From assembly GCA_021772835.1 (NCBI GenBank), contig JAJFLE010000057.1, forward strand, positions 3,177 to 67,176: a stretch of 64,000 nucleotides of DNA, read 5' to 3'. The position numbers and the translations under genes were made by a program. Below the pieces are notes generated by a model. It had not been told where the DNA came from. It did not search any database and worked only from the letters and a program-made list of their open reading frames with translations. This DNA is from Mariprofundus sp. (GTDB lineage Bacteria > Pseudomonadota > Zetaproteobacteria > Mariprofundales > Mariprofundaceae). This document shows, piece by piece, positions 5,481 to 58,113 of this stretch (positions within the stretch are counted from its first letter, which is position 1; each line of letters opens with the position of its first letter).

Positions 5481-6761
5481 TTAAATCATCAGCCAGGTGA
5501 GCAGCAAGCCGAGCATCACAACCATGATCATTCTGGCACTCCAGCCATCCATGAATTTTTCCAGTTTCTGAGAGCGAGTTGTGTCCGGAGATCGTGACAG
5601 CATTCGCCCAGCAATAGCACTCAGCCGGTGGATTCGATGCAGTTCGACACTGCACTGTTGGGCCAGAATTTGAATTTTTTTCTCAACCCATTTGATAGAT
5701 CGCTTTATACTATCAAATGTTGTATCAGGAGGTTGATCATGTTGTGCTCGCCTGACGAACAGGCTCAGGCTAACAAGGAACAGTACTGATACAGCGATAT
5801 AGGGGTTGGCCAGATAAGCAAAGTCATGCCATAGAGAAGGGTGAGTCAGGCCGACGCCCAGCAGTACCATGAACAGGCCGGAGCCAACGGTGGCTCCATA
5901 GGCAGGAAGCAGCCTGATTTGACGTGCAGTGTAGAACCTGAACGCGGCATACAGCATGCCCGCCACACCGATGATCTGGAGGCTCAGCCCCCATTCATCA
6001 AAGCTGTGCTTTCCAACAGGCAGCCAGCGTAGCATGCCAAGCAACCCCGCCGCCACCGGAATCGAGACCAGTAGCAGGGCTCTGGATGAAGAGATGGCGC
6101 TGAAGGCGGTTGAAAGCCACAGACTCAATGGCCAGATGCCTGCTTTGAGCATAAAAGCGGTGAGAACCAAACCCAGGTAGAAATGTGTGGCCGGTACGTT
6201 GGACATGGCTTGATGCACGGCCAGAAATTGTAGATTCTCTGTATTCGAAGCGGCCAGCAGCAATGCTTCGAACAGAGCCAGATCAGCCACAATCAGGCAG
6301 ATCAGATACAACCTGCCAGCCCGATGCACCTGACCGTTGCCGCCATGGATCAGCAGACCGTAAAAACCATAGCTCATCAGGGTTGAGAAACAGAAGAATG
6401 TGACCAGATCGGCGGCCAGAATCAGACCAACATTACCACTGAGGGTGAGCAGAAACAGTGTGGTGAAATAATCATTTGGTGCCGGGTGTTTTGCTCGCCA
6501 TAACAGCGTAGCGGTCAGCAGCCAGAGCATTACGATGGCAACCAGAATCCAGCGTCCCCCCCCATGCAGCGAAAAGCTTGTTCCAAACAGCAGCCAGGGC
6601 ACAGTCAATGCGCTATCGGCAGAGAACAGAACCAGGAACGCAGCTGGCAACACAGCCAAATGGCGTGGAAATGGTAATCGTTGATGCAAAGCAGGCAGAG
6701 CCAGTAACAGCGGCCAGAGTACGGCAAGCCAGATCAGAATGTTGGAAAAGTCGCTACTCAT
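5481..6761 (-). CDS. divergent third antiporter-like (Proton_antipo_M) subunit with a C-terminal amphipathic tail plus terminal TM
   Basis: Start moved to the ATG at 6761, which forms an ATGA overlap with the upstream stop. It is polytopic and retains a ...FMLKAGIWPLSLWL... segment homologous to the TM7 Lys region. The TM5 Glu of its paralogs (LELV / YEFL) is Ser here (FSTL). The last ~90 aa are hydrophilic or amphipathic and are followed by one TM (IMVVMLGLLLTWLMI). Confidence 0.7.
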   Translation of the reverse strand: MSSDFSNILIWLAVLWPLLLALPALHQRLPFPRHLAVLPAAFLVLFSADSALTVPWLLFGTSFSLHGGGRWILVAIVMLWLLTATLLWRAKHPAPNDYFTTLFLLTLSGNVGLILAADLVTFFCFSTLMSYGFYGLLIHGGNGQVHRAGRLYLICLIVADLALFEALLLAASNTENLQFLAVHQAMSNVPATHFYLGLVLTAFMLKAGIWPLSLWLSTAFSAISSSRALLLVSIPVAAGLLGMLRWLPVGKHSFDEWGLSLQIIGVAGMLYAAFRFYTARQIRLLPAYGATVGSGLFMVLLGVGLTHPSLWHDFAYLANPYIAVSVLFLVSLSLFVRRAQHDQPPDTTFDSIKRSIKWVEKKIQILAQQCSVELHRIHRLSAIAGRMLSRSPDTTRSQKLEKFMDGWSARMIMVVMLGLLLTWLMI

Positions 6762-8257
6762 GGCCGGTAAAACTCCCGTACTGAGATCAACTTTGCCCAC
6801 TCCAGCGGGCTAAATGGCAGCGTGGCCAGCAGCCCTGCTGCCAGAGCCAGAGCTGCTGTAATCAGGGGCGGCAATAGCAATGCCCAGGCTGTTTCCTTGC
6901 GACCAAAGTCATGTTCGTGCGGCCATGATTCCGGAGATTTTCTGAACCATGCAGCATGCAATATGGGCAAAAAGTATGCGGCGTTGAGCAGGCTGCTGCC
7001 CGCCAGTACCAGCAACACCCAGCTTTGTCCTGCCTCCAGCGCCCCCATCCCCAGATACCACTTGCTGATAAAGCCGGCCACCGGCGGTGCGCCTATCATG
7101 CCGAAGGCACCAATGGTGAATGCCGCCATGGTCCATGGCATACGCCGTCCTACGCCATTCATCTCGCTGACTTTGTGTATGCCCAGTGTTTCAGCCAGGT
7201 TGCCTGCACAGAAAAACAGGGTGATTTTCATCAGCCCCTGATGCACCAGATGCACCACCCCGCCAATGGTGGCTATAGGCCCTGCAATGGCGACACCGAG
7301 CACAATATAGGAGACCTGGCTGATGGTGGAGAAGGCCAGCCTGCGCTTGAGGTCATCCTGAAACAGTGCGCGCAGAGAGCCGTAGATAATCGTAAATCCT
7401 GCCAGCCATGCCAGTGGCTCCATGACACCGAGACCTGTGGCAAAGTCGACGCCAAAGACATCATAAACCACACGTACGATGCCAAATGCACCCGCCTTCA
7501 CCACTGCCACAGCATGCAACAGAGCACTGACCGGTGCCGGTGCCACCATGGCCAGTGGCAGCCATCCGTGCAGTGGTACAAGTGCCGCCTTCACGCCAAG
7601 CCCTGCGATCATCAGCACAAAAATAATAATCAGGGCATGTCTGTGCTCCTCTCCCAGTCCAGAGAGGAAACCACGCGGCGTAAATTCCAGCGTACCTGTC
7701 AGACTGTAGAGCCATGCAGTTCCCAGCAACAGCAAGGCTCCGCCTATCATGGTATAGACAAGGTAGGTATGCCCTGCCCGGCGTGCTTCTTCCGTACCGC
7801 GATGTACCAGCAGCGGGTAGGTTGCGAGTGTCAAAAACTCATAGAAAATCAGAAAAGTGATCATATTACCGGAGAGGGCGACACCGACTGTGGCGGTCAC
7901 ACAGAGGCTGAAAAAACCGAAGAAGCGGCTGCGATGGGGTGATCCTTCCAGGTAACCAATCGCGTAAATAGTGGTAACCAGCCAGAGCACTGTGGAGAGG
8001 CTGACAAACAGCAGTGCCAGAGGCCCGGCCCTTAGAACCAGCTCCAGATTCGGTAGCAGTGGCAAGCGTGTCTCAAAATGGTGTCCGTTGTAAACGCCCC
8101 AGAACATCCAGCCGACCAGTGCCAGTTTGGTAAGGGCGCCAAACAGATTGAGTCCTGTACGCAAACGTATCCGCTCTTCGGCCAGGGTGAAAATGACCAG
8201 TCCGGGCAGCAGAGAGCTTGCTACCACTAGCAGTGGAATCCACGCATCCCAGTTCAA
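6758..8257 (-). CDS. mrpD: Mrp/Mnh subunit D-like (NuoM/N-like) antiporter subunit, copy 2
   Basis: Start reassigned to the TTG at 8257, giving a TTGA overlap with the upstream stop at 8254-8256 and the N-terminus MNWDAWIPLLVV. The ORF-track ATG would overlap the upstream gene by 244 nt. Motifs: FLIFYEFLTLATYPLLVH and GLGVKAALVPLHGWLPLAMVAPAPVSALLHA. Confidence 0.85.
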   Translation of the reverse strand: MNWDAWIPLLVVASSLLPGLVIFTLAEERIRLRTGLNLFGALTKLALVGWMFWGVYNGHHFETRLPLLPNLELVLRAGPLALLFVSLSTVLWLVTTIYAIGYLEGSPHRSRFFGFFSLCVTATVGVALSGNMITFLIFYEFLTLATYPLLVHRGTEEARRAGHTYLVYTMIGGALLLLGTAWLYSLTGTLEFTPRGFLSGLGEEHRHALIIIFVLMIAGLGVKAALVPLHGWLPLAMVAPAPVSALLHAVAVVKAGAFGIVRVVYDVFGVDFATGLGVMEPLAWLAGFTIIYGSLRALFQDDLKRRLAFSTISQVSYIVLGVAIAGPIATIGGVVHLVHQGLMKITLFFCAGNLAETLGIHKVSEMNGVGRRMPWTMAAFTIGAFGMIGAPPVAGFISKWYLGMGALEAGQSWVLLVLAGSSLLNAAYFLPILHAAWFRKSPESWPHEHDFGRKETAWALLLPPLITAALALAAGLLATLPFSPLEWAKLISVREFYRP

Positions 8258-9717
8258 GGTTGCACGCCACTGGCTGAAAATGGGTCGCCGATGTCCATGA
8301 GCGGCAAGATAAATGGCGCGAGAAACCCGAGCAGGATAGCCCCGCAGGCCAACAGCAGTGCGGCCCACTCCATCCTTGCCGGCACGGCACGTGCCTTTTG
8401 GCATACCGGCGCCTGAGTAAAGGCGCGCCCCAGCACTTTGAACACATATGCTGCTGCCAGCAAACTGCCAAGAATTATCACAACCACGAGCTCCCATCGT
8501 CCCTGTGTGAGTGCTGCTTCAAGCAATAACCATTTACCGACAAAACCACCGCTTGGCGGTAAACCAATAATGCTAACCCCTGCCAGGGCAAAAGCCCCGG
8601 CAGTAAGCGGCAGGCGTTGCACCACCCGGTCCAGATCAGCGATGCGATCATGCCCGCCAAAGCGCATCAGGTTGCCTGCCGCGAGAAACATCGCCGCTTT
8701 GGCCAGCGCATGTGACAGCGCCAGATATCCTGCTGCACTCCAGACTGCCGCACCTGCCATGGTGGAAAGTGGAAATGCAATGAACAGATAACCCAGCTGT
8801 GCTACGGTGGAATAGGCGATGAGCAGCTTCAACCGGGTCTGACGTAGTGCCTGCAGGGAACCCCAAATCACGGCTGCAGAACCAAGCAGCCCGAGCAGAG
8901 TTTCAGCACCGCCGCTGTGCGGAGCAAAAATCTCAAGCCACAGGCGCAACAGAATATAAAAAGCGCCCTTGATGACCAAGGCAGAGAGCAGCGCGCTTAC
9001 CGGTGCAGCAGCACTGGCATGGGTAGCAGGCAACCAGAAGTGCAGCGGCACCAGTGCCATTTTAAGTGCCAGACCTGCCCCCATCAAGCCAAACGCCACC
9101 CACAGTACAGGCACAGGTTCCGCCTGTGTGGCTAAAATGGCGATATCCACACTGCCGAAGCCATGGTAGAGCAATGCCACACCGAGCAGGTAGGCCAGTG
9201 ATCCCAACAGTGTTGCCAACAGGTAACGCATCGCTCCGGCCAGAGCATCCCGGCCGCCGGTCAGCGCTGCCAGTGCCACGGCAGCCAGCCCCACCAACTC
9301 CAGCGTGATATAGAGGTTGAAAATATCGGCAGAGAGGTAAAGTGCGTTCAGCGATGCCAGCAGCAACAGCCATAGCGGCCAGAAGCGGGCCGCGTCCTGC
9401 TGCTTAAAATAGGATGTTGCATAGATGCTGATGCCAAGCCCTGCCACTGCGGTGATGGTAAGCATCAGCAGGCTCAGGCCATCAGCGTAGAGTCCGATAC
9501 CCAGTGGCGCTTCCCAGCCACCAATAGCATGGTGATAGACACCAGTCTCCCTGATCTGCCAGCCCAGTGCGGCAACCGACAGCACCAATGCAGAAAGTGT
9601 CATCACGCCTATGATGTTGGCTGCTCGTGCGTAGAGGAAACACAACACTGCTGCCGCCAGCGGCAGCAAAATTAGAATGATCGCCCAGTGGGAGTCAGCA
9701 ATGACGGCTTGCAACAC
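8254..9717 (-). CDS. mrpD: Mrp/Mnh subunit D-like (NuoM/N-like) antiporter subunit, copy 1
   Basis: 487 aa and polytopic. Motifs: YITLELVGLAAVAL and GLALKMALVPLHFWLPATHASAAAPVSALLSAL. Confidence 0.88.
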   Translation of the reverse strand: MLQAVIADSHWAIILILLPLAAAVLCFLYARAANIIGVMTLSALVLSVAALGWQIRETGVYHHAIGGWEAPLGIGLYADGLSLLMLTITAVAGLGISIYATSYFKQQDAARFWPLWLLLLASLNALYLSADIFNLYITLELVGLAAVALAALTGGRDALAGAMRYLLATLLGSLAYLLGVALLYHGFGSVDIAILATQAEPVPVLWVAFGLMGAGLALKMALVPLHFWLPATHASAAAPVSALLSALVIKGAFYILLRLWLEIFAPHSGGAETLLGLLGSAAVIWGSLQALRQTRLKLLIAYSTVAQLGYLFIAFPLSTMAGAAVWSAAGYLALSHALAKAAMFLAAGNLMRFGGHDRIADLDRVVQRLPLTAGAFALAGVSIIGLPPSGGFVGKWLLLEAALTQGRWELVVVIILGSLLAAAYVFKVLGRAFTQAPVCQKARAVPARMEWAALLLACGAILLGFLAPFILPLMDIGDPFSASGVQP

Positions 9718-9719
9718 TA

Positions 9720-10025
9720 TTACTCTGGTGAATCATCGGGCAGTGTTGCACTGCCGGTTTCAGCTGCCAGCTTCAACATCAGAACCAGAGCCAATGCCGT
9801 GGCTGATACCGCGACCACAATGCCGGTGATGACCATGGCATGTGGCACCGCATCCGGCAGCGCATCGCCGCCACGCCTTGCCAGCGCCACCAGCACAAGT
9901 GAAACACCGCTTCCCATGATATTGATCGCCAAAATCTTGCGCAGCAAGTGGGCATGAACAATCAGGGCATGCAGCCCCAGCACAAACAGTCCAATGCCAG
10001 CCAGTGCAAAGCTAAAACTACTCAT
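9720..10025 (-). CDS. mrpC: Mrp/Mnh subunit C (NuoK-like)
   Basis: Start moved to the ATG at 10025, which overlaps the upstream TAG by 8 nt. The product is ~101 aa with 3 TM: MSSFSFALAGIGLFVLGLHALIVHAHLLRKILAINIMGSGVSLVLV. Confidence 0.85.
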   Translation of the reverse strand: MSSFSFALAGIGLFVLGLHALIVHAHLLRKILAINIMGSGVSLVLVALARRGGDALPDAVPHAMVITGIVVAVSATALALVLMLKLAAETGSATLPDDSPE

Positions 10026-10995
10026 GCTGCCCCTGACCCCCTGAAAACAGTGCCGCCAGTGTGACCGCAATGGAAAGCGCCGCCACCGTTTCAAGTAATA
10101 AAATCAGCGTGCCTGCATGCTCTGGTGGGAACTGCAACAACGCTCCTTCCGCGATTAAGCTGTATGCTGCCATAGACACAAATACCACAGGGCCTGCCAC
10201 CGCCAGCAGCCGCAGCCGCATGGCTGTTAGCAGGCGGTGTAGCGGCCATCCGGCCAACAGCAGCAACACGCAAGCTGCAGCCAGCACGGAGCCCGCCTGA
10301 AAGGCGCCGCCGGGTGCATGGGCGCCTACCCACAACAGATAGGCAGCGACCATCATCAATACCGGCACCAACAGGTAAACCAGCGTATCGAGAACGGAAC
10401 TGGTAGTTTCAAGCGAGGTTTTGCCAATGGTTTCAATTGAGCGATTGAATTGAATCGATCCCATCGACCAGATTGCTATCAATGCCAAGAGCAATACAAA
10501 CACCTCCAGCAGCGTGTCGTATGCCCGGAAGTTGAGCAGCACCGCTGTTACCGGATTACTCACCCCGCTGGCTGCAAGGTTTGCATTGATTTCAGCGCTT
10601 AGTCCGACCGCGTTGCCTGGCAGGGATAACACGCCATAAACAAGACCAAACAACACAGGCAGCAGCAAAATTGCTGACAGCCACTGCACAAGCCTAGCAT
10701 CGATGTTATTCGGAGCTTCTTCTACGCCTGTATTGCTCGTTACATTGCCCTCCATGCCGCGCAGTCGTGCCAGTGCCGCCAACAGCAGCGCACCGGATAA
10801 CCCGGCACCGATGGCTGCTTCAGCAAGCGCGATATCCGGCGCCTCCAGCCTGACCCACACCAGTGCCATAAGCAGGCCAAAGGCAATGAACAGTGCAATA
10901 GCGCTGAACAGATCGGTAGAATTCAATGCTTTCCATGCCAGCCCCAGCAGCCCCAACAGCAACAGTCCATCAAAACCCCATGCCAGCAACGTCAT
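10018..10995 (-). CDS. mrpB: fused MbhD/DUF4040-like + MnhB-domain subunit (MrpA C-terminal-like + MrpB)
   Basis: Start moved to the ATG at 10995 (ATGA overlap with the mrpG stop). The N-terminal half, MTLLAWGFDGLLLLGLLGLAWKAL...AIGAGLSGALLLAAL, resembles DUF4040. The C-terminal half carries the MnhB signature NPVTAVLLNFRAYDTLLEVFVLL. Confidence 0.8.
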   Translation of the reverse strand: MTLLAWGFDGLLLLGLLGLAWKALNSTDLFSAIALFIAFGLLMALVWVRLEAPDIALAEAAIGAGLSGALLLAALARLRGMEGNVTSNTGVEEAPNNIDARLVQWLSAILLLPVLFGLVYGVLSLPGNAVGLSAEINANLAASGVSNPVTAVLLNFRAYDTLLEVFVLLLALIAIWSMGSIQFNRSIETIGKTSLETTSSVLDTLVYLLVPVLMMVAAYLLWVGAHAPGGAFQAGSVLAAACVLLLLAGWPLHRLLTAMRLRLLAVAGPVVFVSMAAYSLIAEGALLQFPPEHAGTLILLLETVAALSIAVTLAALFSGGQGQHE

Positions 10996-11294
10996 GACTT
11001 CCACGGTCGAATCCCCCGCTTTAATGCGCCATTTGCAACCAGATAGGAGACACTGGCTCCGGCAAGCAGCACCAGCAACCAGATCAAGACCAGCTTGCCT
11101 GCCACCGCCCATGACTCCGCCTGCAGGGCCAGTCCGGCTATGATCAAGCCTAAGCCGACATTGTCAGCCTTGGTCAGTGCATGCAGACGGGTATAGACGT
11201 CAGGAAAACGCAACAGTCCCAGTGTTCCGGCCAGAAAAAACACAGCCCCGGCAATCAGAAGAAGTACGGAGAAGAGATCAATCACTGCGATCAT
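10992..11294 (-). CDS. mrpG: Mrp/Mnh subunit G
   Basis: Carries LRFPDVYTRLHALTKADNVG, the PhaG/MnhG/YufB signature. 100 aa. It overlaps mrpF by 17 nt. Confidence 0.88.
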   Translation of the reverse strand: MIAVIDLFSVLLLIAGAVFFLAGTLGLLRFPDVYTRLHALTKADNVGLGLIIAGLALQAESWAVAGKLVLIWLLVLLAGASVSYLVANGALKRGIRPWKS

Positions 11295-11553
11295 CTACCT
11301 GTTCCGGCCATGCACGGCGAACAAAAGCCACCGCCGTTACTGCGGCCAACAGGGCAAACACCAGTGCCACATCACGCAGCGCAGGATTATCGTACGTTTC
11401 AGCCAGCAACAGCAGGATGGCTACCGCAGTGGTGCCGAATAACTGTGCTGCCAGCATGCGATCTGCAGCTGTTGGCCCGCGCAGCACACGCCACATGCCG
11501 GCAATAAGCGTGCATAGCAAAAACAGGGCGACGGCGAGGAACAATAGCTGCAT
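11278..11553 (-). CDS. mrpF: Mrp/Mnh subunit F
   Basis: Carries WRVLRGPTAADRMLAAQL, the MrpF/PhaF signature. 91 aa with 3 TM. Confidence 0.88.
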   Translation of the reverse strand: MQLLFLAVALFLLCTLIAGMWRVLRGPTAADRMLAAQLFGTTAVAILLLLAETYDNPALRDVALVFALLAAVTAVAFVRRAWPEQVDDRSD

Positions 11554-11562
11554 AGCCAGCTG

Positions 11563-12543
11563 TCACTCCTCCAGCGTTACCGGGGTGACAAACTCGGGTG
11601 GCTTCACGGCTAGTACTGAGCAATCAATGCTATTGAGTATCTCTTCGGCAGTATTACCCATGATGAACCCGGGTATGCCGGTGCGACCAACAGTTCCCAT
11701 AACGATAAGGTCTGCCTTAATTTTTTTAGCCTGTTTCGGGATGACTGCTCGTGCCCAGCCTTTCACTACATGTACCTCGGGTTTGAGGTAATCGACAGCA
11801 TTGTCTGACTGGCCACTGGCCATTTCATCCAGAAATGCAGCCATACTGTGCTCTTCGCTCTTCTTGACCTGCTTAATGTATGCTTTGATCTCATCCTCTG
11901 GTGTTCGCATGAAGTGGCCACGCATTGCGCTTTCCCCAATAGCATCCCAGGCATGCACAAGGTGCAGTTCAGCAAAATCAGAGAGCGCCAGTGAGCTGGC
12001 CATTTCAAACACCTGCCGGTTCAGCGCCTGTCTGGAATCAAGCTCATGCGACGGGTAAGCATCACCCACATCAACTGCTGCCAGAATACAGCGCCATGAT
12101 TTCTTCGCCTCTGGCTTGATCAGCCAGACCGGACACGGGCATTTGCGCAATAAATGCATATCGTTGCTACCAAAGAGCCTGTGCAACCACGTATGGCTAT
12201 CCGGCGTTTTAATGACCAGGTCATGGCCGTTGCGTAGCACCTCTCTGATGATTTGCAGAAAAGGTACGCCGTTCAATATTCGAGTTGAGATGTCGACATG
12301 GGCTCTAAAGGGATCAAGCAACGTATCCAGAGCCTGCTCATGCGCCTGCTTTACAGCGGCTTGCAAGTCAGCGGGTGACGGACCATCTTCTGGCAGCCTG
12401 ATTCGCCCTTCGATCTGCTTGCCAACGATGGCAACGGTCAGGTTGGCCTGATTACTCTCAGCCAAAGCCACTGCACGTTTAAGGGCTGGCTCGCATGCTG
12501 TGTCTATATCCACTACACATAATATGTTCTTGAATCGTTTCAT
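11563..12543 (-). CDS. tandem universal stress protein (2 x USP domains) embedded in the mrp operon
   Basis: Start moved to the ATG at 12543, with GGAGG 8 nt upstream and 1 nt after the mrpE TAG. The N-terminus is MKRFKNILCVVDIDT. A second USP repeat begins at WRCILAAVDVGD and ends with ADLIVMGTVGRTGIPGFIMGNTAEEILNSIDCSVLAVKP (ATP-binding G-2x-G-9x-G(S/T)-type motif). Confidence 0.85.
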   Translation of the reverse strand: MKRFKNILCVVDIDTACEPALKRAVALAESNQANLTVAIVGKQIEGRIRLPEDGPSPADLQAAVKQAHEQALDTLLDPFRAHVDISTRILNGVPFLQIIREVLRNGHDLVIKTPDSHTWLHRLFGSNDMHLLRKCPCPVWLIKPEAKKSWRCILAAVDVGDAYPSHELDSRQALNRQVFEMASSLALSDFAELHLVHAWDAIGESAMRGHFMRTPEDEIKAYIKQVKKSEEHSMAAFLDEMASGQSDNAVDYLKPEVHVVKGWARAVIPKQAKKIKADLIVMGTVGRTGIPGFIMGNTAEEILNSIDCSVLAVKPPEFVTPVTLEE

Positions 12544-12544
12544 C

Positions 12545-13054
12545 CTATTGACCTCCTTCAGACGCCTGCAAACCCATAACAAATATTCGGGCCACATGTT
12601 GCTCCACCTCTGCAAGCTCCGGATAAATATCATTCCGGCAATCCAGAACGTGCACGGTGAGGATATCCTGGTTGATTCCAGCACTTAATGTGCCGGGTAG
12701 CAAACTTGCAATATTCGCCATCAATACGCGCGGCAATCCTGGTGGTATGCGCAGCGGATATTCAATGAACGCTGGCGCAATGGGTAACATCGGATGATAC
12801 GCACGCCGTGCAACATCGATGCCGCCTAACAAAGAGCGCATGAAAAAAAAGGGTATGAATTTTAGTATCGCATAGCCATTCATCTGCACAGGCAAACCCA
12901 GCCGGATACTCACCCATACTGCCAGCACCACCGCAGGCACACCTATCCACCAGGAGTGAATATTACCATCAGTGAGAATCCACCAGATCAGACTGAATAC
13001 GATGACGCATACAAGAATCGACATCATGCCGGTTTTTAGATATTTCGTCCTCAT
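12545..13054 (-). CDS. mrpE: Mrp/Mnh subunit E
   Basis: 169 aa with two N-terminal TMs, then ...LANIASLLPGTLSAG...VHVLD, typical of the MNHE family. Confidence 0.8.
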   Translation of the reverse strand: MRTKYLKTGMMSILVCVIVFSLIWWILTDGNIHSWWIGVPAVVLAVWVSIRLGLPVQMNGYAILKFIPFFFMRSLLGGIDVARRAYHPMLPIAPAFIEYPLRIPPGLPRVLMANIASLLPGTLSAGINQDILTVHVLDCRNDIYPELAEVEQHVARIFVMGLQASEGGQ

Positions 13055-13109: not shown

Positions 13110-15830
13110 TCATGAATCTGTACTGGTTCGTTTTTCCTTATAATAACGAATCAGGAATTTTTCTGTTTCCACCAGAAAAAGAACGGATGACCCAATGGCT
13201 ATAATTCTCACCCAGGCCTCAACACTGATTCCTGTGGTTGCGAAGAGTGTCTGCATGGGAGCAAGGTAAGTAAAGCCCAGTTGGAAGATCACCAATAGCC
13301 CAATGGCATAAAGCACATAACGGTTCCCTGTCAGTCCTTCATAGCTAAGTGATGGAGCATGGAGATAACGTGCACTAAACAGATAAAATATCTCGAACAT
13401 GACAAGCGTATTCACTGCAATGGTGCGAGCTTCTTCAATCGAAGTTCCGTTTCCCCTTTCCCACAAGAACAGGCCAAAGGTTCCGATCAGAATGATCAGC
13501 GAGACAAAGGTTACCCGCCAGATAAGGAACCCGGAGAGTATAGGTTCGTTTGGGTTGCGCGGGGGGCGCTGCATGACATTTCGTTCAGCGGGTTCAAACG
13601 CGAGGGTCAAAGCCAATGTGACGGCCGTTATCATATTAACCCAAAGAATTTGCGCTGGAGTAATGGGGAGCATGCGACCCATGACAATCGCTGCGATGAT
13701 GATAAGTGCCTCCCCACCATTGGTTGGAAGTACAAAAAGTATAGATTTTTTCAGGTTATCATAGACCGTCCTACCCTCTTCAACAGCATGTGCGATGGAG
13801 GCAAAATTATCATCGGCGAGCACCATTTCTGCTGCCTCCTTGGCAACCTCAGTACCCTTGAATCCCATGGCAACACCAACATCGGCTCGTTTCAGGGCAG
13901 GCGCATCATTAACACCATCGCCTGTCATGGCAACCACTTCACCCGTGGCCTGCAGTGCTGTTACCAGCTGTAGTTTCTGTTCCGGTGATACACGGGCAAA
14001 AATATCACAGCGTTGTACAGCATCCTGCATCTGTTTGTCGTTGTAAGCTTCCAGTTCGGCCCCTGTGATGACTTCCACGCCATTGCCTATGCCCATCTGG
14101 GTGCCAATAGCACGGGCAGTAATAGCATGGTCACCGGTGATCATTTTGACACGAATACCGGCAGCCTGGCAGTTGTGCACTGATCGGGTGGCCTCCTCAC
14201 GTGGCGGATCAATGATTCCTACGATACCAAGCAGGGTAAAACCGTTCTCTACATCATGAAAATCAAGCTCTTTTTTCTCGGCAGGAGCTGCCTTGAGTGC
14301 AATAGCCAGCAACCTCTGCCCCTTGGAGGCCATGGTATCCATGCAGTCCTCCCAATAGGGCTTGTCGAGAGCTATATCTTCATCTTGGCTGCGTTGCAGC
14401 GTACACATCTCCAAAATCCGTTCCGGGGCACCTTTCAGATAAATAAAGCCATGGCCTGTGTGATCATGGTGCAGCGTAGCCATGAAGCGGTGTTGCGATT
14501 CAAAAGGGATGCCATCTGTACGCGGGAGTTGACGATGACAATCACGTTGCTCAAAACCTGCTTTAAGCGCCAGCGTCACCAAAGCGCCTTCAGTAGGGTC
14601 GCCCTGTATTCGCCACTGCCCGTCTGCCTCAGACAGCGTAGCGTCATTACACAGCAGTGCAGCCTGAGCCACTTCTTGCAGCAATGGGAACTCTTCTGGT
14701 GTCATATTCTGGCCGTCGCGACTGAAAGCCCCATGCGGGGCATATCCGACACCGCTAACTTCACATGACCCGACACTGGTGGTCAGGCTCTGCACAGTCA
14801 TTTCATTGCGTGTGAGTGTACCCGTTTTATCAGAACAGATTACAGTAACCGAACCAAGCGTTTCAACCGCAGGTAGACGGCGAATGATGGCATTTTTTTT
14901 CGCCATGCGCTGCACCCCGATGGCAAGCGTAATGGTCATAATTGCAGGTAAACCTTCAGGAATACCTGCCACAGCAAGACCCACAGCAGCCAGGAACATA
15001 TCACCGATAGAATAGTCATGAAAAAGTACGCCATAAGCGAAAGTAGTCGCCGCAATCACAGCGATGGCGATAGTTAGCCACTTGGCAAATATCGCCATCT
15101 GCTGCAACAGTGGTGTGGTGAGCACCTGAACCTGACTTAGCATGCCACTGATACGGCCGATTTCAGTGCTGTCGCCTGTTTCCACCACAACCCCCTGCCC
15201 CTGACCATACGTAACCAGTGTGCCAGAATAGGCCAAGCATTTGCGATCACCGATGCTGGCATGTTCGGATGCGACCCCAATGTTTTTTTCAACAGGTACC
15301 GATTCGCCGGTAAGCATCGCCTCTTCGATGCGCAGTTCACGAACCTTGAACAGGCGCAAATCCGCCGGGACTTTATCTCCAGACTGGAGCAGAACAACAT
15401 CGCCAGGAACCAGCTGATCTGCCGGGATTGCTATGAATGCCCCATCACGTTTTACCATCGCCTGCAGTGAAAGCATATTGCGGATGGCATCCAAAGATTT
15501 TTCTGCTTTGCCCTCCTGGATGAATCCGATAATGGCATTAATTACCACCACACCCACAATCACACCGCTATCCACCCAGTGGCCAAGCAGGGCGGTGACA
15601 ACACCTGCCCCTATCAACACATAGATAAGAAGGTTGTGAAACTGAGCAAGGAACCGTGCCAACGGGCTAATCTTTTTCGCAGGTCGCAACCTGTTTGGCC
15701 CGTACTCCTGCAAACGATCTTGAGCATTTTTTTGTGAAAGACCATCCACTGATGAAGAAATCTTCTTTAGTGCATCTCCAGCTTCGAGCGCATGCCAATT
15801 GCTTATTCTAGAATCACCGGAATCAATCAT
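13110..15830 (-). CDS. cation-translocating P-type ATPase (type II, PEGLP class)
   Basis: 906 aa. Motifs: TGES, PEGLPAIMT, CSDKTGTLT, MITGDH and TGDGVNDAPALKRADVG. It sits 55 nt upstream of mrpE on the same strand. Confidence 0.92.
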   Translation of the reverse strand: MIDSGDSRISNWHALEAGDALKKISSSVDGLSQKNAQDRLQEYGPNRLRPAKKISPLARFLAQFHNLLIYVLIGAGVVTALLGHWVDSGVIVGVVVINAIIGFIQEGKAEKSLDAIRNMLSLQAMVKRDGAFIAIPADQLVPGDVVLLQSGDKVPADLRLFKVRELRIEEAMLTGESVPVEKNIGVASEHASIGDRKCLAYSGTLVTYGQGQGVVVETGDSTEIGRISGMLSQVQVLTTPLLQQMAIFAKWLTIAIAVIAATTFAYGVLFHDYSIGDMFLAAVGLAVAGIPEGLPAIMTITLAIGVQRMAKKNAIIRRLPAVETLGSVTVICSDKTGTLTRNEMTVQSLTTSVGSCEVSGVGYAPHGAFSRDGQNMTPEEFPLLQEVAQAALLCNDATLSEADGQWRIQGDPTEGALVTLALKAGFEQRDCHRQLPRTDGIPFESQHRFMATLHHDHTGHGFIYLKGAPERILEMCTLQRSQDEDIALDKPYWEDCMDTMASKGQRLLAIALKAAPAEKKELDFHDVENGFTLLGIVGIIDPPREEATRSVHNCQAAGIRVKMITGDHAITARAIGTQMGIGNGVEVITGAELEAYNDKQMQDAVQRCDIFARVSPEQKLQLVTALQATGEVVAMTGDGVNDAPALKRADVGVAMGFKGTEVAKEAAEMVLADDNFASIAHAVEEGRTVYDNLKKSILFVLPTNGGEALIIIAAIVMGRMLPITPAQILWVNMITAVTLALTLAFEPAERNVMQRPPRNPNEPILSGFLIWRVTFVSLIILIGTFGLFLWERGNGTSIEEARTIAVNTLVMFEIFYLFSARYLHAPSLSYEGLTGNRYVLYAIGLLVIFQLGFTYLAPMQTLFATTGISVEAWVRIIAIGSSVLFLVETEKFLIRYYKEKRTSTDS

Positions 15831-25047: not shown

Positions 25048-25929
25048 TTAATCGGTACGGGAAACTTGCACACTGACTGTCAATTTCTGCTCGACATTAC
25101 CCCGAAAGATGCCTTTTACGGGCGTAACATCGAAATAGTCACGTCCGATTGCGGTGCGGATATATTGCCAATCGACCAGCTTGTCATTGGTAGGGTCAAT
25201 GCCGCACCAGCTCATAGTCGGGTGCCATGCCTGCACCCAGGCATGTGTGGCCGCAGCGCCACGAAGATGCTGGCCTGCCTCTTCTGCTTGATTTGAATCG
25301 TAGATATATCCGCTGACATAACGTGCCGGAATACCGGCAAGGCGTAAAACGCCGATCATGGCATGAGCCATATCTTGGCAAACACCGCCGCCATGGTCGA
25401 AAAATGCTTTCGGTGACGAGTGCACATGGGTCACATCGGGATCATAACGGAAATTATTGTAGAAATAGGCAGCCAGTTCGTAGAGTGATTCTTTGAACTC
25501 CTTTTCATTCATCTGCAGGGTGATCCGATTCGGTACTGCATCGTATTCGGCAAGCACCGGCACTCCTTTTGACCAGTGCAGAAATTCAGCATATTGCTGC
25601 GATATGGGGCGCGGATCCTGCTCAACAGCAAAACCTGAAATGCAGTTGGATGTGTGCACAACGGACTCGGAAACAATCTCAACAAAATCATGCGGGGCGA
25701 TGATGTTGAAGTGGTGTACGATATTACCATAATAATCATAGTGTTTGCCGATGCTGCACTCGGGAGATACCGTCAATTCTGCATGTCCCACGCTCTGCAG
25801 AGGGGTATCGACAGGCATCATGCGCACTTCTGAATAAGCCAGCGCAACCGGACCGGAGTAATCCAGACGGGTGCTATGACGCACTTTCATGGTGGCGTGC
25901 AGTTCTTTTTGTCTTCTGGTCGCATTCAT
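25048..25929 (-). CDS. transglutaminase-like cysteine protease-fold protein (Bact_transglu_N + core)
   Basis: Carries GGGVCQDMAHAMIGVLRLAGIPARYVSGY (Cys), THAWVQAW (His) and GIDPTND (Asp). ATGA overlap with the upstream gene. Confidence 0.88.
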   Translation of the reverse strand: MNATRRQKELHATMKVRHSTRLDYSGPVALAYSEVRMMPVDTPLQSVGHAELTVSPECSIGKHYDYYGNIVHHFNIIAPHDFVEIVSESVVHTSNCISGFAVEQDPRPISQQYAEFLHWSKGVPVLAEYDAVPNRITLQMNEKEFKESLYELAAYFYNNFRYDPDVTHVHSSPKAFFDHGGGVCQDMAHAMIGVLRLAGIPARYVSGYIYDSNQAEEAGQHLRGAAATHAWVQAWHPTMSWCGIDPTNDKLVDWQYIRTAIGRDYFDVTPVKGIFRGNVEQKLTVSVQVSRTD

Positions 25930-26942
25930 TGGTGAACCTGCTGTTGTTGCTGGGCTTGCGTGCCCATGGGGGTTTCATGTCCGAAACTGTCGAGGATGAT
26001 CATTGGATCGAGATAGCCGCTTGTCAGTTGCTGGTGAATATCACTACAGCGTGCATTGATCTCTTCAAGGTAGGAGCGCAGACCTTGATCGAGCACGACA
26101 TCACCGTTGCCTTCTTCAAGCTCTTCATGAAAGGTAGCTATCTGCGCAAACAGCGTTTTTTGCGAATCGGTGTGGCAACCGATACCACTGAGTCCATCAC
26201 GTACGTGCCTGATACAATAACTCAGCGAACGCGGGAATCGCGGATCGAACAGCATCAGGTTAATCACCTTGCCCGGCGAAATACGGGCCCTATACAGACG
26301 GCGGTAGGCTTCATAACCGGATACGGAGCGCAGCAACGCCTGCCACTGATGCAGATCCAGCGGGCGGCCCACCTCATCCGAATCGGGTAGCAGGATGTAA
26401 TACTTGATGCCGAGAATACGAGCGGTCATGCGGGCACGCTCCAGGTAGCGCCCCAGGCGCAGGAACTGCCACGCTTCTCCATGCACCATGGTGTTATCGG
26501 CAAAGCCGTTGAAGGCGTTACAGAAAAGCTGAATACGCCGATTGAAACGGTTGCTGCCTCGGTTGATCACTTCATCAAGGACGACACCCTGAATTTCAAT
26601 ATGCATGCGGTTGATGTGTTCCCAGATCTCCTCACTGATTCGCTCACGCATGCCTCGCGCATGTTCTCGAGCCAGATTCAGGCTGGAAATCATCGAACGC
26701 GGGTTGTCCTCGCTGAGCAGCAGGAAGTCATAGACATTGATTTCGTTGACTTCATCGTAGAGTGAATCGAACAGTTCACGGGAGCCGGTGATGGAGAGCA
26801 TCGGCGACCAGACATCCAGATCGGAGAAGTAGTTTAACTCCAGGCTCATACGGTGGTTTACATCAAGGATACGCGTAACATTCTCAGTGCGCTCGATACA
26901 GCGGCCGAGTTCATACATGCCTCGGGCGATACGGCTAAGCAT
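25926..26942 (-). CDS. alpha-E domain protein (DUF403 family)
   Basis: MLSRIARGMYELGRCIERTENVTRILDVN is the typical N-terminus of alpha-E proteins. It is flanked by the ATP-grasp and transglutaminase partners. Confidence 0.85.
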   Translation of the reverse strand: MLSRIARGMYELGRCIERTENVTRILDVNHRMSLELNYFSDLDVWSPMLSITGSRELFDSLYDEVNEINVYDFLLLSEDNPRSMISSLNLAREHARGMRERISEEIWEHINRMHIEIQGVVLDEVINRGSNRFNRRIQLFCNAFNGFADNTMVHGEAWQFLRLGRYLERARMTARILGIKYYILLPDSDEVGRPLDLHQWQALLRSVSGYEAYRRLYRARISPGKVINLMLFDPRFPRSLSYCIRHVRDGLSGIGCHTDSQKTLFAQIATFHEELEEGNGDVVLDQGLRSYLEEINARCSDIHQQLTSGYLDPMIILDSFGHETPMGTQAQQQQQVHQ

Positions 26943-28416
26943 GGTTTTCTCCCTCTTCGGGGTAGAGCACCCAGGTATCTTTACTGCCTCCGCCCTGCGA
27001 TGAATTGACCACCAGTTGCCCTTCGGCCAGCGCCACGCGAGTCAGCCCCCCGGGCAGCACGGAAATTCGCCCGTCAGATCCGCATACGGCGTAGGGGCGC
27101 AGATCGACATGGCGAGGTTGCAATACCTTGTGCCCATCTTTCTCCACCAGTGTCGGGTGGGTAGAAAGTTTCTGTATGGGCTGTGCAATGTAATGCTCAG
27201 GATTGTCGGCAATCAGCTGACGGAACGCAATGATCTGCTCCTTCGTGGCATGGCTGCCGACCAGCATGCCGTAACCGCCGGAGGCATCGGTGGGTTTGAC
27301 CACCAGTTCTTCAAGGTGGTCCAGTACATAGGCCAGCTCATCGGGCCTGCGGCACAGATAGGTCGGCACGATAGGTATGATCGGCTCTTCGTTCAGATAA
27401 TAGCGAATGATATCCGGTGTGTAGGCATAGGTTGCCTTGTCATCAGCCACACCTGTGCCCGGGGCATTGGCCAGCACCAGGTTGCCAGCGCGATAGGCGT
27501 GCATGATACCAGTCACGCCGAGCATCGAATCGGCGCGGAAGGTCAACGGGTCGAGGTACTCATCGTCGATGCGGCGGTAGAGCACATCCACGCGCACCAG
27601 CCCTTCGGTGGTTTGCATATACAATATGTCATTATCAACCAGCAGGTCGCGACCCTCAACCAGTTCGGCTCCCATCTGATTGGCAAGAAACGCGTGCTCG
27701 AAATAGGCCGAGTTATAGGTGCCTGGAGTCAGTACTGCAATGTTGGGATTCTCGACTCTGGCCAGTGATGACAGGGCGGCAAAAAGCATTTGAGGATAAT
27801 GATCAACGGCACGAATGCGATGTTGCTGCAAGAGATCGGGCATCACACGGCCCATAACCCAACGGTTTTCCACCACATAGGAGACGCCGGATGGTGAACG
27901 AAGATTATCCTCGAGAACGAGCAGTTCGCCATTGCCATCGCGAATCAGGTCAATGCCGCTGATATGAGCGTAAACACCACCGGGAACATCCACATGCATC
28001 ATTTCACGACAAAAGTAGGGTGAATTGACAACCAGGTCTGTGGGGATGATCTGCTCCTTGAGTATGTTCTGTTCATGATAAATATCATGCAGAAACATGT
28101 TCATGGCTGTAAGTCGCTGTTTGATGCCGGCCTCCACCTTATCCCACTCGCTGGCAGTGATCAGACGTGGCATGAGATCGAACGGAAAGATCTTTTCTGT
28201 GCCACGGGCATCGGAATAAACCGTGAAGGTTACGCCCTGATTGAGCAATGACAGGTCTGCTTCACGCTGCAGGTCGGTCATGTCCTCACCATTACGTCGC
28301 CTTAACCAAGCATAGAGTTTGCGGTAGTGAGGGCGGGGCTTGCCGGACTCATCCAGCATTTCATCAAAGAAAGATTGTGCGTCGTAAGATGGCCAGAGGG
28401 ATGTGTTGGATTCCAT
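26935..28416 (-). CDS. circularly permuted type-2 ATP-grasp protein
   Basis: 493 aa. Carries ...PRPHYRKLYAWL...READLSLLNQGVTFTVYSDARGTEKIFPFDLMPRLI..., characteristic of the CP_ATPgrasp_2 family. It is the first gene of the triad. Confidence 0.85.
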   Translation of the reverse strand: MESNTSLWPSYDAQSFFDEMLDESGKPRPHYRKLYAWLRRRNGEDMTDLQREADLSLLNQGVTFTVYSDARGTEKIFPFDLMPRLITASEWDKVEAGIKQRLTAMNMFLHDIYHEQNILKEQIIPTDLVVNSPYFCREMMHVDVPGGVYAHISGIDLIRDGNGELLVLEDNLRSPSGVSYVVENRWVMGRVMPDLLQQHRIRAVDHYPQMLFAALSSLARVENPNIAVLTPGTYNSAYFEHAFLANQMGAELVEGRDLLVDNDILYMQTTEGLVRVDVLYRRIDDEYLDPLTFRADSMLGVTGIMHAYRAGNLVLANAPGTGVADDKATYAYTPDIIRYYLNEEPIIPIVPTYLCRRPDELAYVLDHLEELVVKPTDASGGYGMLVGSHATKEQIIAFRQLIADNPEHYIAQPIQKLSTHPTLVEKDGHKVLQPRHVDLRPYAVCGSDGRISVLPGGLTRVALAEGQLVVNSSQGGGSKDTWVLYPEEGENHA

Positions 28417-57141: not shown

Positions 57142-58113
57142 TCACCCGGCTCTGACAGTCTGCAGGTGCAGGCGCCCTTGAGCTCTATAGAGTCGGCAAC
57201 GGGACAAATCAAGTCCCCCCCGTGCCTTTTTCGACGTCCATGTTTCAACCAGTTCGATATGACGCCGCCCGGGAGTACTACCTTCGCCAAGCACGATAAC
57301 CATAATTTTCTGCAACACACGTGCCCGCACAGGCGGCGAGCTTGCACACCAGGCCTGCCAAGAGAGGGAGGCCACACCCTGTTCATGCAACAGATCATTT
57401 TCCAGCATTTTTTCCGCTGCCGTATCCAACCTGTCAGTAAGACAGTCAGCCTGAACTTTCCAGCGCAAAAACAGCTGGCGGGGCTGATATCCAGCCTGAT
57501 GCATGGCAGAAAAATCTCTCGCCCTTATCCGATTGCGCCACAAGCCTGAATCATCGTTGCTGGGATCTTCCAGCCATTCAACTTCAGCCTCTCTTAAAGC
57601 CTCTTTCAGCATGTTACCCTGCACATGCAACAGTGGGCGCAGCAATCTTAATGTTCCAAGCATACGTTCGTTATGCATGCCCCGGCAGCCTGCCGCCCCT
57701 GCCCCTTGCAGCATACGCATATAAACAGTCTCAGCCTGATCATCCAGATGATGACCCAGACACAAAACATTCACATCAAGCTCTTGTCCCCAGCGTGCAA
57801 ACTGCGCATAACGGCCAGCTCTGGCCTCAGCCTCCATATTCTTACCGGTTGGTTCATCCAGCCTGGTTGAATAAAACGGAATACCCCACTGCTCTGCTCT
57901 GTTCGCCAGCAGCGCGGTTTCATCATGGGAAAATGATCGCCATGCATGGTCCACATGCCAAGCCTGGAGCTGGCATCCAGTCGATTTCAGAGCCAGTAAC
58001 AAAGCGGTTGAATCAGCCCCGCCCGACCAGCCCACAGCCACCGTTTGTGAGGTCGTAAAAATAGTCTGACCATCCAGCCAGCCATTGAATATTTCAGATT
58101 GCATGTTTTGCAT
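57142..58113 (-). CDS. tilS: tRNA(Ile)-lysidine synthetase
   Basis: PP-loop VGWSGGADSTALLL, then GHHLDDQAET. 323 aa, a short form without the long C-terminal domain. Confidence 0.88.
   Translation of the reverse strand: MQNMQSEIFNGWLDGQTIFTTSQTVAVGWSGGADSTALLLALKSTGCQLQAWHVDHAWRSFSHDETALLANRAEQWGIPFYSTRLDEPTGKNMEAEARAGRYAQFARWGQELDVNVLCLGHHLDDQAETVYMRMLQGAGAAGCRGMHNERMLGTLRLLRPLLHVQGNMLKEALREAEVEWLEDPSNDDSGLWRNRIRARDFSAMHQAGYQPRQLFLRWKVQADCLTDRLDTAAEKMLENDLLHEQGVASLSWQAWCASSPPVRARVLQKIMVIVLGEGSTPGRRHIELVETWTSKKARGGLDLSRCRLYRAQGRLHLQTVRAG

Follow-up and report, generated by a model that had tools for sequence, protein, structure and literature searches.

Known Mrp-Type Systems and the Mariprofundus Operon

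Mrp-type antiporters are seen as ancestral to the modules by which complex I, MBH, and MBS pump ions. Group 3 of these systems is defined by the absence of mrpA and the presence of one or more mrpD genes, as in the mrpEFGBB'CD operon of P. furiosus (PMC8415708, PMC5703873). Here, we analyze a block of nine co-directional genes arranged head to tail at positions 5481–13054, on the minus strand, of a 64-kb stretch of DNA from Mariprofundus sp. (Zetaproteobacteria; assembly GCA_021772835.1, contig JAJFLE010000057.1), hereafter the window. In line with the definition of group 3 (Swartz 2005; Ito 2017; Haja 2021), which also includes an irregular gene order, the window contains no mrpA and three D-like genes. 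The original prediction, made from the sequence alone, described the block as an Mrp-type operon with a degenerate third antiporter-like paralog, and this description is essentially right: the block is a conserved group 3 Mrp operon with variant features. Probably it encodes one Mrp (CPA3) complex in which the third antiporter-like subunit, designated D', acts as a structural cap and not as a canonical proton path.

The operon type as such is already known at the annotation level, and the original prediction overstated the novelty of the architecture. Examples are an 'MrpEFGBBCDD complex' of the Solemya velum symbiont (PMC4287430), the 'Mnh/MrpEFGBCD1D2D3' of Verruconatronum (PMC13274419), an 'eight subunit Mnh-type antiporter' of Nitrospina gracilis (PMC3578206), 'mnhBCDEFG' of tubeworm symbionts (PMC10300362), and a pair of additional NuoM/L-like genes that follow mrpD in Ca. 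Nitrospira alkalitolerans (PMC7784846). A literature search on Mrp in Zetaproteobacteria, Nitrospina, and related taxa, and on MrpD3, yielded only annotation-level mentions. It found no description of a third-subunit clade devoid of the glutamate of transmembrane helix 5 (TM5 Glu), of the truncation of this subunit to an 11-TM stub with a lateral helix (HL), of an operon-embedded universal stress protein (USP), or of the MrpF and MrpG substitutions reported below. Marine iron, sulfur, and nitrite oxidizers and their symbiotic relatives commonly carry the cluster, and as a rule their annotations name it just a Na+/H+ antiporter.

The gene order is mrpE, a tandem USP, mrpF, mrpG, an MbhD/MbhE/MnhB fusion, mrpC, and the genes for the antiporter-like subunits D1, D2, and D':

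12545–13054, minus strand: mrpE, 169 aa, PF01899 (MNHE), E 1.9e-24
11563–12543, minus strand: tandem USP, UspE-like, 326 aa, PF00582 twice, E 6e-38
11278–11553, minus strand: mrpF, 91 aa, PF04066 (MrpF_PhaF)
10992–11294, minus strand: mrpG, 100 aa, PF03334 (PhaG_MnhG_YufB) and TIGR01300, above cut-off
10018–10995, minus strand: MbhD + MbhE + MnhB/MrpB fusion, 325 aa, PF13244, PF20501, PF04039
9720–10025, minus strand: mrpC, NuoK-like, 101 aa, PF00420 (Oxidored_q2), E 4e-15
8254–9717, minus strand: D1, MrpD-type antiporter-like subunit, 487 aa, GTG start, PF00361 and PF00662
6758–8257, minus strand: D2, antiporter-like subunit, 499 aa, TTG start, PF00361 and PF00662
5481–6761, minus strand: D', third antiporter-like subunit, 426 aa, PF00361 (Proton_antipo_M)
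5739–6761, minus strand: D' core, aa 1–341, 11 predicted TM helices (AlphaFold2, AF2, secondary structure)
5586–5726, minus strand: D' tail, aa ~346–392, predicted long amphipathic, lateral-type helix
5484–5546, minus strand: D' C-terminal TM anchor, aa 406–426 by hydropathy (AF2 helix 406–425)

Matches to PF01899, PF04066, PF03334, PF04039, PF00420, and PF00361 are all above the gathering score, and homologs of MrpB, C, D, E, F, and G reside in one operon. The Pfam scan of the nine products, proposed originally as a check, assigned each to its family, and with Pfam and NCBIfam matches to every Mrp part the Mrp identity is confirmed, as are the E-F-G-B-C-D order and the presence of three PF00361-containing paralogs, the third of them degenerate. 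All motifs quoted in the original prediction are found in the sequence, and the recomputed junctions, in gene order, are identical to those listed there: +1, +9, −17, −4 (ATGA), −8, +2, −4 (TTGA), and −4 (ATGA) nt. A phmmer search with D1, D2, and D' against all six-frame open reading frames (ORFs) of the window revealed no fourth PF00361 homolog, second Mrp system, or MrpA, and the reported lack of an ~800-aa MrpA thus holds within these 64 kb. Rfam yielded 0 matches; promoter-like sites are rarer than in shuffled sequences, and the promoter and terminator scans were uninformative.

Like other group 3 systems (PMC8415708, PMC5703873, PMC4287430, PMC13274419), the operon has no full-length mrpA, follows the E-F-G-B-C-D order, and carries the MrpA C-terminal domain as an MbhD/MbhE-like 'MrpB'; all small-subunit families are also present. 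It differs in having three antiporter-like subunits (compared with one in P. furiosus and two in the cyanobacterial mrpCD1D2EFGAB), in its third subunit, a predicted 11-TM stub with a lateral-helix tail, in the tandem USP inside the operon, and in the replacement of the MrpF Asp by Gln and of the MrpG Pro by Ala. Complex I's membrane arm (NuoK-N-M-L) likewise consists of a NuoK-like subunit and three antiporter-like subunits, the last with a lateral helix, and the C-D1-D2-D' gene order mirrors this physical order. Unlike complex I, the locus has no NuoH/A/J Q-module or redox arm, contains the Mrp-specific E/F/G/B sodium module, and encodes a non-canonical third subunit. Finally, the best PDB sequence matches of D', MrpF, MrpG, MrpC, and the MbhD/E part are chains of MBS and MBH of P. 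furiosus, which share the gene order and include a comparable MbhE+MbhF fusion, MbsE; in contrast to these complexes, the locus contains no hydrogenase-like module, and their subunit MbsH' is a complete 16-TM protein with a full charged axis.

Canonical Subunits D1 and D2

Both D1 and D2 cover the PF00361 model from end to end and, in addition, match PF00662 (Proton_antipo_N). The best PDB matches of D1 are MrpD, MbsH, and MbhH; D2 is closest to NdhF1, then to MbhH and MbsH, with NuoL, NdhF, and MrpA chains next. In a joint alignment with 157 family sequences, which was used for all residue states, the key residues of D1 (E140, K219, H226, K250, H336, K340, K395) are present and conserved in its family, and those of D2 (E140, K223, H230, H248, K254, K344, K399) are conserved in 60/60 sequences. 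These include the TM5 Glu (E140 in both proteins), the TM7 Lys (K219 and K223), and the TM12 Lys (K395 and K399), while the TM7 His, TM8 Lys, and TM11 Lys are kept in both D1 and D2; D2 also bears the L-type TM8 His. Across the D1 and D2 families, the TM5 Glu, TM7 Lys/His, TM8 Lys, TM11 Lys, and TM12 Lys are retained in 52–60 of 55–60 sequences. The alignment therefore bears out the statement that the first two paralogs keep the TM5 Glu and the TM7 Lys-His region. D2 is the most conserved of the three subunits, the mean pairwise identity being 79% for D2, 71% for D1, and 47% for D'; identities to the Ghiorsea proteins are 95, 88, and 64%, respectively.

The Truncated, Charge-Poor Core of D'

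D' matches only positions 1–227 of the 294 positions of PF00361 (E 2e-15), and no PF00662 N-terminal domain was detected in it. Its AF2 model, derived from a 61-sequence alignment (mean pLDDT 70), has eleven TM helices, and the chain exits the membrane after TM11. Instead of a 14-TM core with two inverted 5-TM repeats whose broken helices are TM7 and TM12, both AF2 and hydropathy thus give 11 TM helices, TM12–14 being missing. From the charged axis of a canonical subunit (TM5 Glu, TM7 Lys, TM8 His/Lys, TM11 His/Lys, TM12 Lys), D' retains solely the TM7 Lys206, a position occupied by Lys or Arg in 42/42 family members. The TM8 Lys is replaced by Ala, and the TM11 His/Lys are gone.

In both the HMMER and MAFFT alignments, the TM5 Glu column corresponds to T127 of 'CFSTLMS', with S126 adjacent; in the D' family it contains T, A, V, or S and is acidic in 0/42 sequences. 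The TM7 His is Ser in the window and in 2/42 family members, and it is kept in 34/42. Of the Glu-to-Ser and His-to-Ser changes reported originally, the former stands as a family-wide loss of the acidic residue that is not due to misalignment, but the Glu column falls on the threonine and the serine is its neighbor; the latter is correct for the window but lineage-specific. The degeneration of D' goes further than was described, as the TM8 Lys, the TM11 His/Lys, and TM12–14 have also been lost.

Some charges persist. In the 61-sequence alignment, D160 and E165 of TM6 never vary. D160 lines up with the Asp of the 'VGD' motif of E. coli NuoL, with which D' shares this acidic residue; the position is D/E throughout the D' clade and has no counterpart in MrpA, MrpD, D1, or D2. 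D160 may replace the lost TM5 Glu as the partner of Lys206. On an alternative reading, D' would still provide an active third ion path, with TM6 Asp160/Glu165 paired with TM7 Lys206, and the complex, moving three or more H+ per cycle, would resemble complex I's membrane arm minus the Q module. The residues just listed speak for it, and so do the long relatives of D' described below, which keep the TM7 Lys, TM8 Lys, TM11 His/Lys, and TM12 Lys and, judging by these residues, are plausibly active. Nevertheless, we regard an active D' as unlikely: the short form has neither the second half-channel (TM12–14) nor the connecting residues of TM8 and TM11, its evolution is much faster than that of D1 and D2, and the TM5 Glu, normally coupled to the TM12 Lys of the neighboring subunit, is absent from every member, short or long.

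We also considered D' as a decaying pseudogene and rejected this, given that across phyla its ORFs are unbroken, show translational coupling, and contain invariant residues.

A Predicted Lateral-Type Helix and Anchor in the D' Tail

The AF2 model of the D' tail comprises a continuous helix of 42 residues (349–390), a short helix (396–403), and a terminal TM helix (406–425). Residues ~342–392 have a hydrophobic moment of 0.4–0.6 and a negative mean hydrophobicity, that is, the segment is amphipathic. Many Lys and Arg residues lie between positions ~353 and ~402, and the family consensus contains periodic conserved Trp. In the anchor, W407 is invariant in 61/61 sequences, and the consensus ITLFVLLGL..AWLA is conserved. 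Since the tail is basic and follows an odd-numbered TM helix, topology would place it on the cytoplasmic face, as is the case for the HL of NuoL and MrpA. The hidden Markov model (HMM) of the short-form tail matches the C-termini of ~580–614-aa relatives with E-values of 1e-13 to 1e-19; at the sequence level, the tail is homologous to the C-terminus of these long forms.

At the level of prediction, D' therefore ends in the long amphipathic helix and single TM anchor characteristic of L-type subunits. Like MrpA, NuoL, ND5, and NdhF (TM15-HL-TM16), it has an antiporter-like core with an amphipathic helix and then a TM anchor behind it, and its long relative P0115 (see below) superposes full-length on MrpA and NuoL. 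Unlike these proteins, D' has no TM12–14/15, TM5 Glu, TM8 His/Lys, TM11 His/Lys, or TM12 Lys; it further differs from MrpA in that the MrpA C-terminal domain is encoded here on a separate polypeptide. The resemblance of the tail to the NuoL/MrpA lateral helix and its anchor, noticed in the original prediction, is upheld by the predicted helix and TM segment, the amphipathicity, the conservation, the tail homology, and the superposition of P0115.

Recurrence of the Operon

The search with D' yielded 309 homologs, mostly 420–440 aa long, from Gammaproteobacteria, Nitrospinaceae, and metagenome-assembled genomes of Chromatiales; they carry generic names such as 'proton-conducting transporter membrane subunit' or 'formate hydrogenlyase'. 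The order E-(USP)-F-G-MbhD/MnhB-C-D1-D2-D' is shared by the four D' homolog contexts that were inspected. Scanning one genome per species identified 70 loci, and the gene content of all fetched loci was established by ORF calling and phmmer. The closest loci are those of Ghiorsea (D' 63–64% identical) and Mariprofundus; others come from Nitrospinaceae, Ectothiorhodospiraceae, Sedimenticolaceae, tubeworm and clam symbionts, Methylophaga, and the cultured Thiohalobacter thiocyanaticus (L069). Gene order is identical wherever the locus sequence suffices, with mrpE at the head of the block in all complete related loci. Altogether, 48 non-redundant complete loci from Zetaproteobacteria, Nitrospinaceae, and marine sulfur-oxidizing Gammaproteobacteria have the same order, and all hosts of the surveyed loci are marine or saline. 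The USP gene is found between mrpE and mrpF in 27/48 loci; the MbhD-MnhB protein is a single ORF in 23/48 and is split in 25/48. Such recurrence is more than chance.

Natural single-chain fusions of a D2 ortholog (N-terminal) with a long third subunit (C-terminal) were also observed, namely P0183 (1115 aa), P0250 (1063 aa), and the fragment P0237. Because such fusions exist, D2 and the third subunit are expected to be adjacent in that order (Rosetta-stone evidence). A single complex, argued for originally from the tight gene junctions, is thus supported by strict co-occurrence across loci and by the fused proteins. In L024 (9817–11658) and L031 (10234–12030), a fourth antiporter-like gene of ~600 aa immediately follows the short D'; its product, a long form, still has the TM11 and TM12 residues.

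Alternatively, the block could encode the ion-translocating module of a larger MBH/MBS-like respiratory complex, with a redox partner encoded elsewhere and D' docking in the manner of MbsH'/MbhI. The E-F-G-B-C-D order is shared with mbh/mbs and with P. furiosus mrp (PMC8415708), the C-terminus of the HL-bearing MbsH' lies at the redox-module interface of MBS (PMC8165549), and the hosts are chemolithoautotrophs. In a scan of 75 loci against E. coli HycD/E/F, HyfC/G/I, and NuoI/J, however, redox matches were obtained in just one locus, on the opposite strand and in an unrelated module, and a linked redox complex was rejected on these grounds; neither the window nor 74/75 related loci have NuoB/D/H/I-like or hydrogenase genes linked to the cluster. 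Furthermore, the neighbors are cation-homeostasis genes (a P-type ATPase, a CPA2 exchanger), and the stand-alone group 3 Mrp is an accepted category. A respiratory role of this kind therefore appears highly improbable.

Two further loci show other arrangements. On the contig of L051, two complete Mrp-type clusters stand in tandem; the third subunit of the first is a long form (stop-to-stop ORF of 638 codons), and the second has only D1 and D2 within the fetched stretch. Plasmid 1 of Rubrobacter radiotolerans (L078, 2454–9983) bears a related cluster, E-F-G-MbhD-[595-aa L-type]-D-D, in which the HL-bearing subunit comes first; its MrpF has the same Gln as that of the window (see below), and the cluster adjoins a CRISPR-Cas locus.

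Origin of the D' Clade

In a rough neighbor-joining tree (272 columns, small reference set), the D' clade is well separated, with a bootstrap of 100, and does not branch with MrpA/NuoL. The phylogenetic placement proposed in the original prediction thus delimits the clade but not its deeper position relative to MrpA/NuoL; likewise, the grouping of D2 with NuoN in this tree is not reliable. In addition to short forms, the clade holds long forms of ~580–640 aa, the fourth subunits of L024 and L031, and, from the Rubrobacter radiotolerans plasmid cluster (E-F-G-MbhD-L-D-D), a 595-aa protein named 'complex I subunit 5 family protein'. An exhaustive profile search returned 683 50%-identity clusters at E <= 1e-30; among the best 150 matches, 53 are short forms and 69 are long forms. 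The latter have TM12–15, an 'IPxGD' turn, the amphipathic stretch, and the anchor. The TM5 Glu is missing in 69/69 long forms; most of them retain the other charged residues, 34/69 displaying the pattern A-K-H-K-H-K-K.

The loss is graded. The Rubrobacter protein and typical long forms lack the Glu only; the fourth subunits of L024 and L031 (X4) also lack the TM8 Lys; from long D' forms such as P0115, the TM11 and TM12 residues are missing as well; and in the short D' the helices themselves are gone. The model of P0115 (580 aa; pLDDT 86, pTM 0.86) aligns full-length to MrpA (7qru_A, TMq 0.72) and to NuoL/ND5/NdhF (0.66–0.72), with a poorer fit to MrpD (0.56–0.61). The long relatives have the L-type fold, as the modeled P0115 illustrates, and D' may be seen as derived from an L-type (NuoL/MrpA-N-like, 16-TM) subunit by truncation and loss of charges. 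The claim of 'no MrpA' is accordingly true of a full-length gene in the window but partly semantic, the C-terminal domain being present as MbhD/MbhE. It is better read as 'MrpA dispersed and degenerate', because this domain sits in the B fusion and D' would be the remnant of an HL-bearing L-type subunit.

Proposed Organization of the Complex

The subunit order, the ion specificity, and the non-pumping role of D' that we infer are as follows. By homology with the solved Mrp, MBH, and MBS complexes, the subunits would be arranged as [MrpE-MrpG-MrpF-MnhB] - [MbhD/E + MrpC] - D1 - D2 - D'. Proton flow down the proton-motive force via D1, D2, and the small-subunit path would drive export of a cation, most likely Na+, along a route from MrpF/G/E via the MbhD Glu to Glu140 of D1. 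In the solved Mrp, the TM5 Glu of MrpD faces the cation site of MrpC and the MrpA C-terminal domain, and where two antiporter-like subunits follow each other, the TM12 Lys of the first is opposite the TM5 Glu of the second (PMC7419157). Carried over by homology, E140 of D1 would face the cation site, K395 of D1 would face E140 of D2, and K399 of D2 would face a position of D' that is never acidic, which would make D2 electrostatically the last canonical unit. D' would then cap the distal face of D2 and supply a cytoplasmic amphipathic lateral helix and a TM anchor bracing the row of subunits. The review literature presents the HL as universally conserved and as a brace for assembly that keeps antiporter-like subunits together (PMC8165549); D' probably survives mainly to supply such a clamping helix. 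A cyanobacterial group 3 Mrp complements Na+ sensitivity (PMC5703873).

Several observations weigh against an Na+-exporting complex capped by D'. The subunit keeps strongly conserved charges (nearly invariant K206, invariant D160 and E165) that could form a non-canonical path. Its short-form model is only moderately confident (pLDDT 70, and 47–70 in the tail). D' is not always terminal, as L024 and L031 carry a long subunit after it. An MrpA could be encoded elsewhere in the genome, its absence being established for the 64-kb window. Finally, MrpF is without its 'invariably conserved' Asp and MrpG without its 'essential' Pro; with Gln and Ala at these positions, the usual path of Na+ entry is changed, and another substrate is conceivable.

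It is still debated which roles the lateral helix and the contacts between the TM5 Glu and TM12 Lys of adjacent subunits play. The D' clade offers a graded natural series of third subunits, from a full L-type protein minus the TM5 Glu through a charge-stripped long form to the 11-TM stub, each beside two fully canonical subunits. If D' is indeed a structural cap, the selectable function of the terminal subunit would lie in the helix and anchor, and the operon provides a compact bacterial system for tests of HL function, opens a three-subunit complex-I-like membrane arm without a redox module to study, and could test how Mrp works without the 'invariant' MrpF Asp. The operon is useful as a natural test of both lateral-helix function and Mrp cation-entry chemistry.

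Small Subunits and the Putative Cation Entry

The MrpF of the window has DRMLAAQ where all five solved MrpF/MbhB/MbsB chains have DR..A.D, so that Gln37 (codon 11443–11445) stands in place of an otherwise invariant Asp; D31 is retained. The Gln is present in 51/51 family members and also in the Rubrobacter cluster. The replaced residue corresponds to D35f of A. flavithermus, which is 'invariably conserved' and lies on the proposed Na+ path; D35L abolishes activity of the A. flavithermus Mrp, and E and N substitutions are mild in B. subtilis (PMC7419157). The same Asp is Asp38 in B. pseudofirmus (PMC9568556). MrpG keeps His38 of the TRLHA motif and, family-wide, has Ala at the usual helix-breaking Pro, equivalent to the 'invariable and essential' P86g that faces the MrpF Asp (PMC7419157, PMC9568556). 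Hence neither the MrpF Asp nor the MrpG Pro of the proposed cation entry is found here (Gln37 and Ala, respectively), and the alignments indicate that the entry region is remodeled in this clade.

In the B fusion, the N-terminal two thirds correspond to positions ~620–850 of the NCBIfam MrpA models and the remainder to MrpB; its MbhD + MbhE part is equivalent to TM17–21 of the MrpA C-terminal domain. It keeps the key Glu in 'LAEAAIGAG' (MbhD E69, MrpA E706) and the D..E exit pair in 'YDTLLEV' (D792/E796; all numbering per PMC7419157). The MrpA C-terminal domain is thus present together with its essential TM19 Glu and the exit pair, and the retention of these residues speaks for cation/proton antiport. 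The best PDB matches of MrpC are MbsG and MbhG. The columns equivalent to the cation-site residues H37c/H40c (Ser/Gly in the window) were considered as a family difference and dismissed, as the S. aureus, Dinoroseobacter, MbsG, and MbhG sequences also differ among themselves.

The gene immediately upstream of the operon encodes a possible functional partner:

13110–15830, minus strand: P-type cation ATPase, 906 aa, on the strand of the operon and 55 nt upstream of it; a neighbor, not a subunit

It matches NCBIfam type IIA, Ca-ATPase-like models, below cut-off. A homolog occurs near the cluster in 17 fetched loci, just upstream of mrpE in nine of them (20–715 nt or overlapping) and downstream of D' in the other eight (seven within ~0–2 kb of the D' match, one ~3 kb away). 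In L005, a CPA2 Na+/H+ exchanger lies upstream of the cluster in place of the ATPase. These arrangements suggest that the P-type ATPase and the Mrp cluster form a conserved cation-homeostasis island.

A remodeled cytoplasmic entry site might mean that the complex exchanges another cation, K+ or Ca2+, or has altered affinity or regulation, possibly working together with the ATPase. The family-wide MrpF and MrpG substitutions and the ATPase in 17 loci are consistent with this, and K+- or Ca2+-specific Mrp systems are documented (PMC5703873). On the other hand, the MbhD central Glu, the D..E exit pair, MrpF D31, MrpG His38, and D1 Glu140 are all kept, Na+ export is an obvious need of the marine and saline hosts, replacement of the MrpF Asp by Glu or Asn is mild in B. 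subtilis (PMC7419157), and the neighbor in L005 is a Na+/H+ exchanger. We therefore doubt that the specificity has changed and give preference to Na+ as the substrate.

The USP gene is separated by 1 nt from mrpE and by 9 nt from mrpF. The match of its product to the NCBIfam UspE model (E 7e-53) stays under the curated cut-off. In the C-terminal domain there is a conserved MGT..RTG..G...GNTAE stretch, in which G-TV-G-RTGIPGFIM-G-N-T comes close to G-2x-G-9x-G-(S/T), the nucleotide-binding motif of ATP-binding UspFG-type members of the UspA superfamily, except that the third Gly is followed by Asn, not Ser/Thr; the N-terminal domain has no such motif. The protein would probably be a cytoplasmic regulatory partner of the complex. 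One may go further and view the operon as a distinct regulated Mrp subtype, in which an antiporter-like subunit, cut down to a non-pumping scaffold, serves only to provide the HL, a stoichiometric cytoplasmic tandem USP acts as a gate controlled by nucleotide or stress signals, and the altered MrpF/MrpG entry shifts cation selectivity or coupling compared with every characterized Mrp system. We put this forward tentatively, as a possibility with some weight though not an expectation; if true, the operon would be a natural experiment in which the HL is a structural brace and not a piston.

Genomic Neighborhood

The rest of the window is ordinary chromosome, encoding, e.g., PNPase, FtsH, LptD/SurA, and an ABC transporter. 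A 735-aa ORF at 58113–60320 (minus strand) has no Pfam match at E <= 1e-4. Three consecutive minus-strand ORFs with overlapping ends occupy 25048–28416 (25048–25929, 25926–26942, and 26935–28416), the last of them encoding a circularly permuted ATP-grasp type 2 protein.

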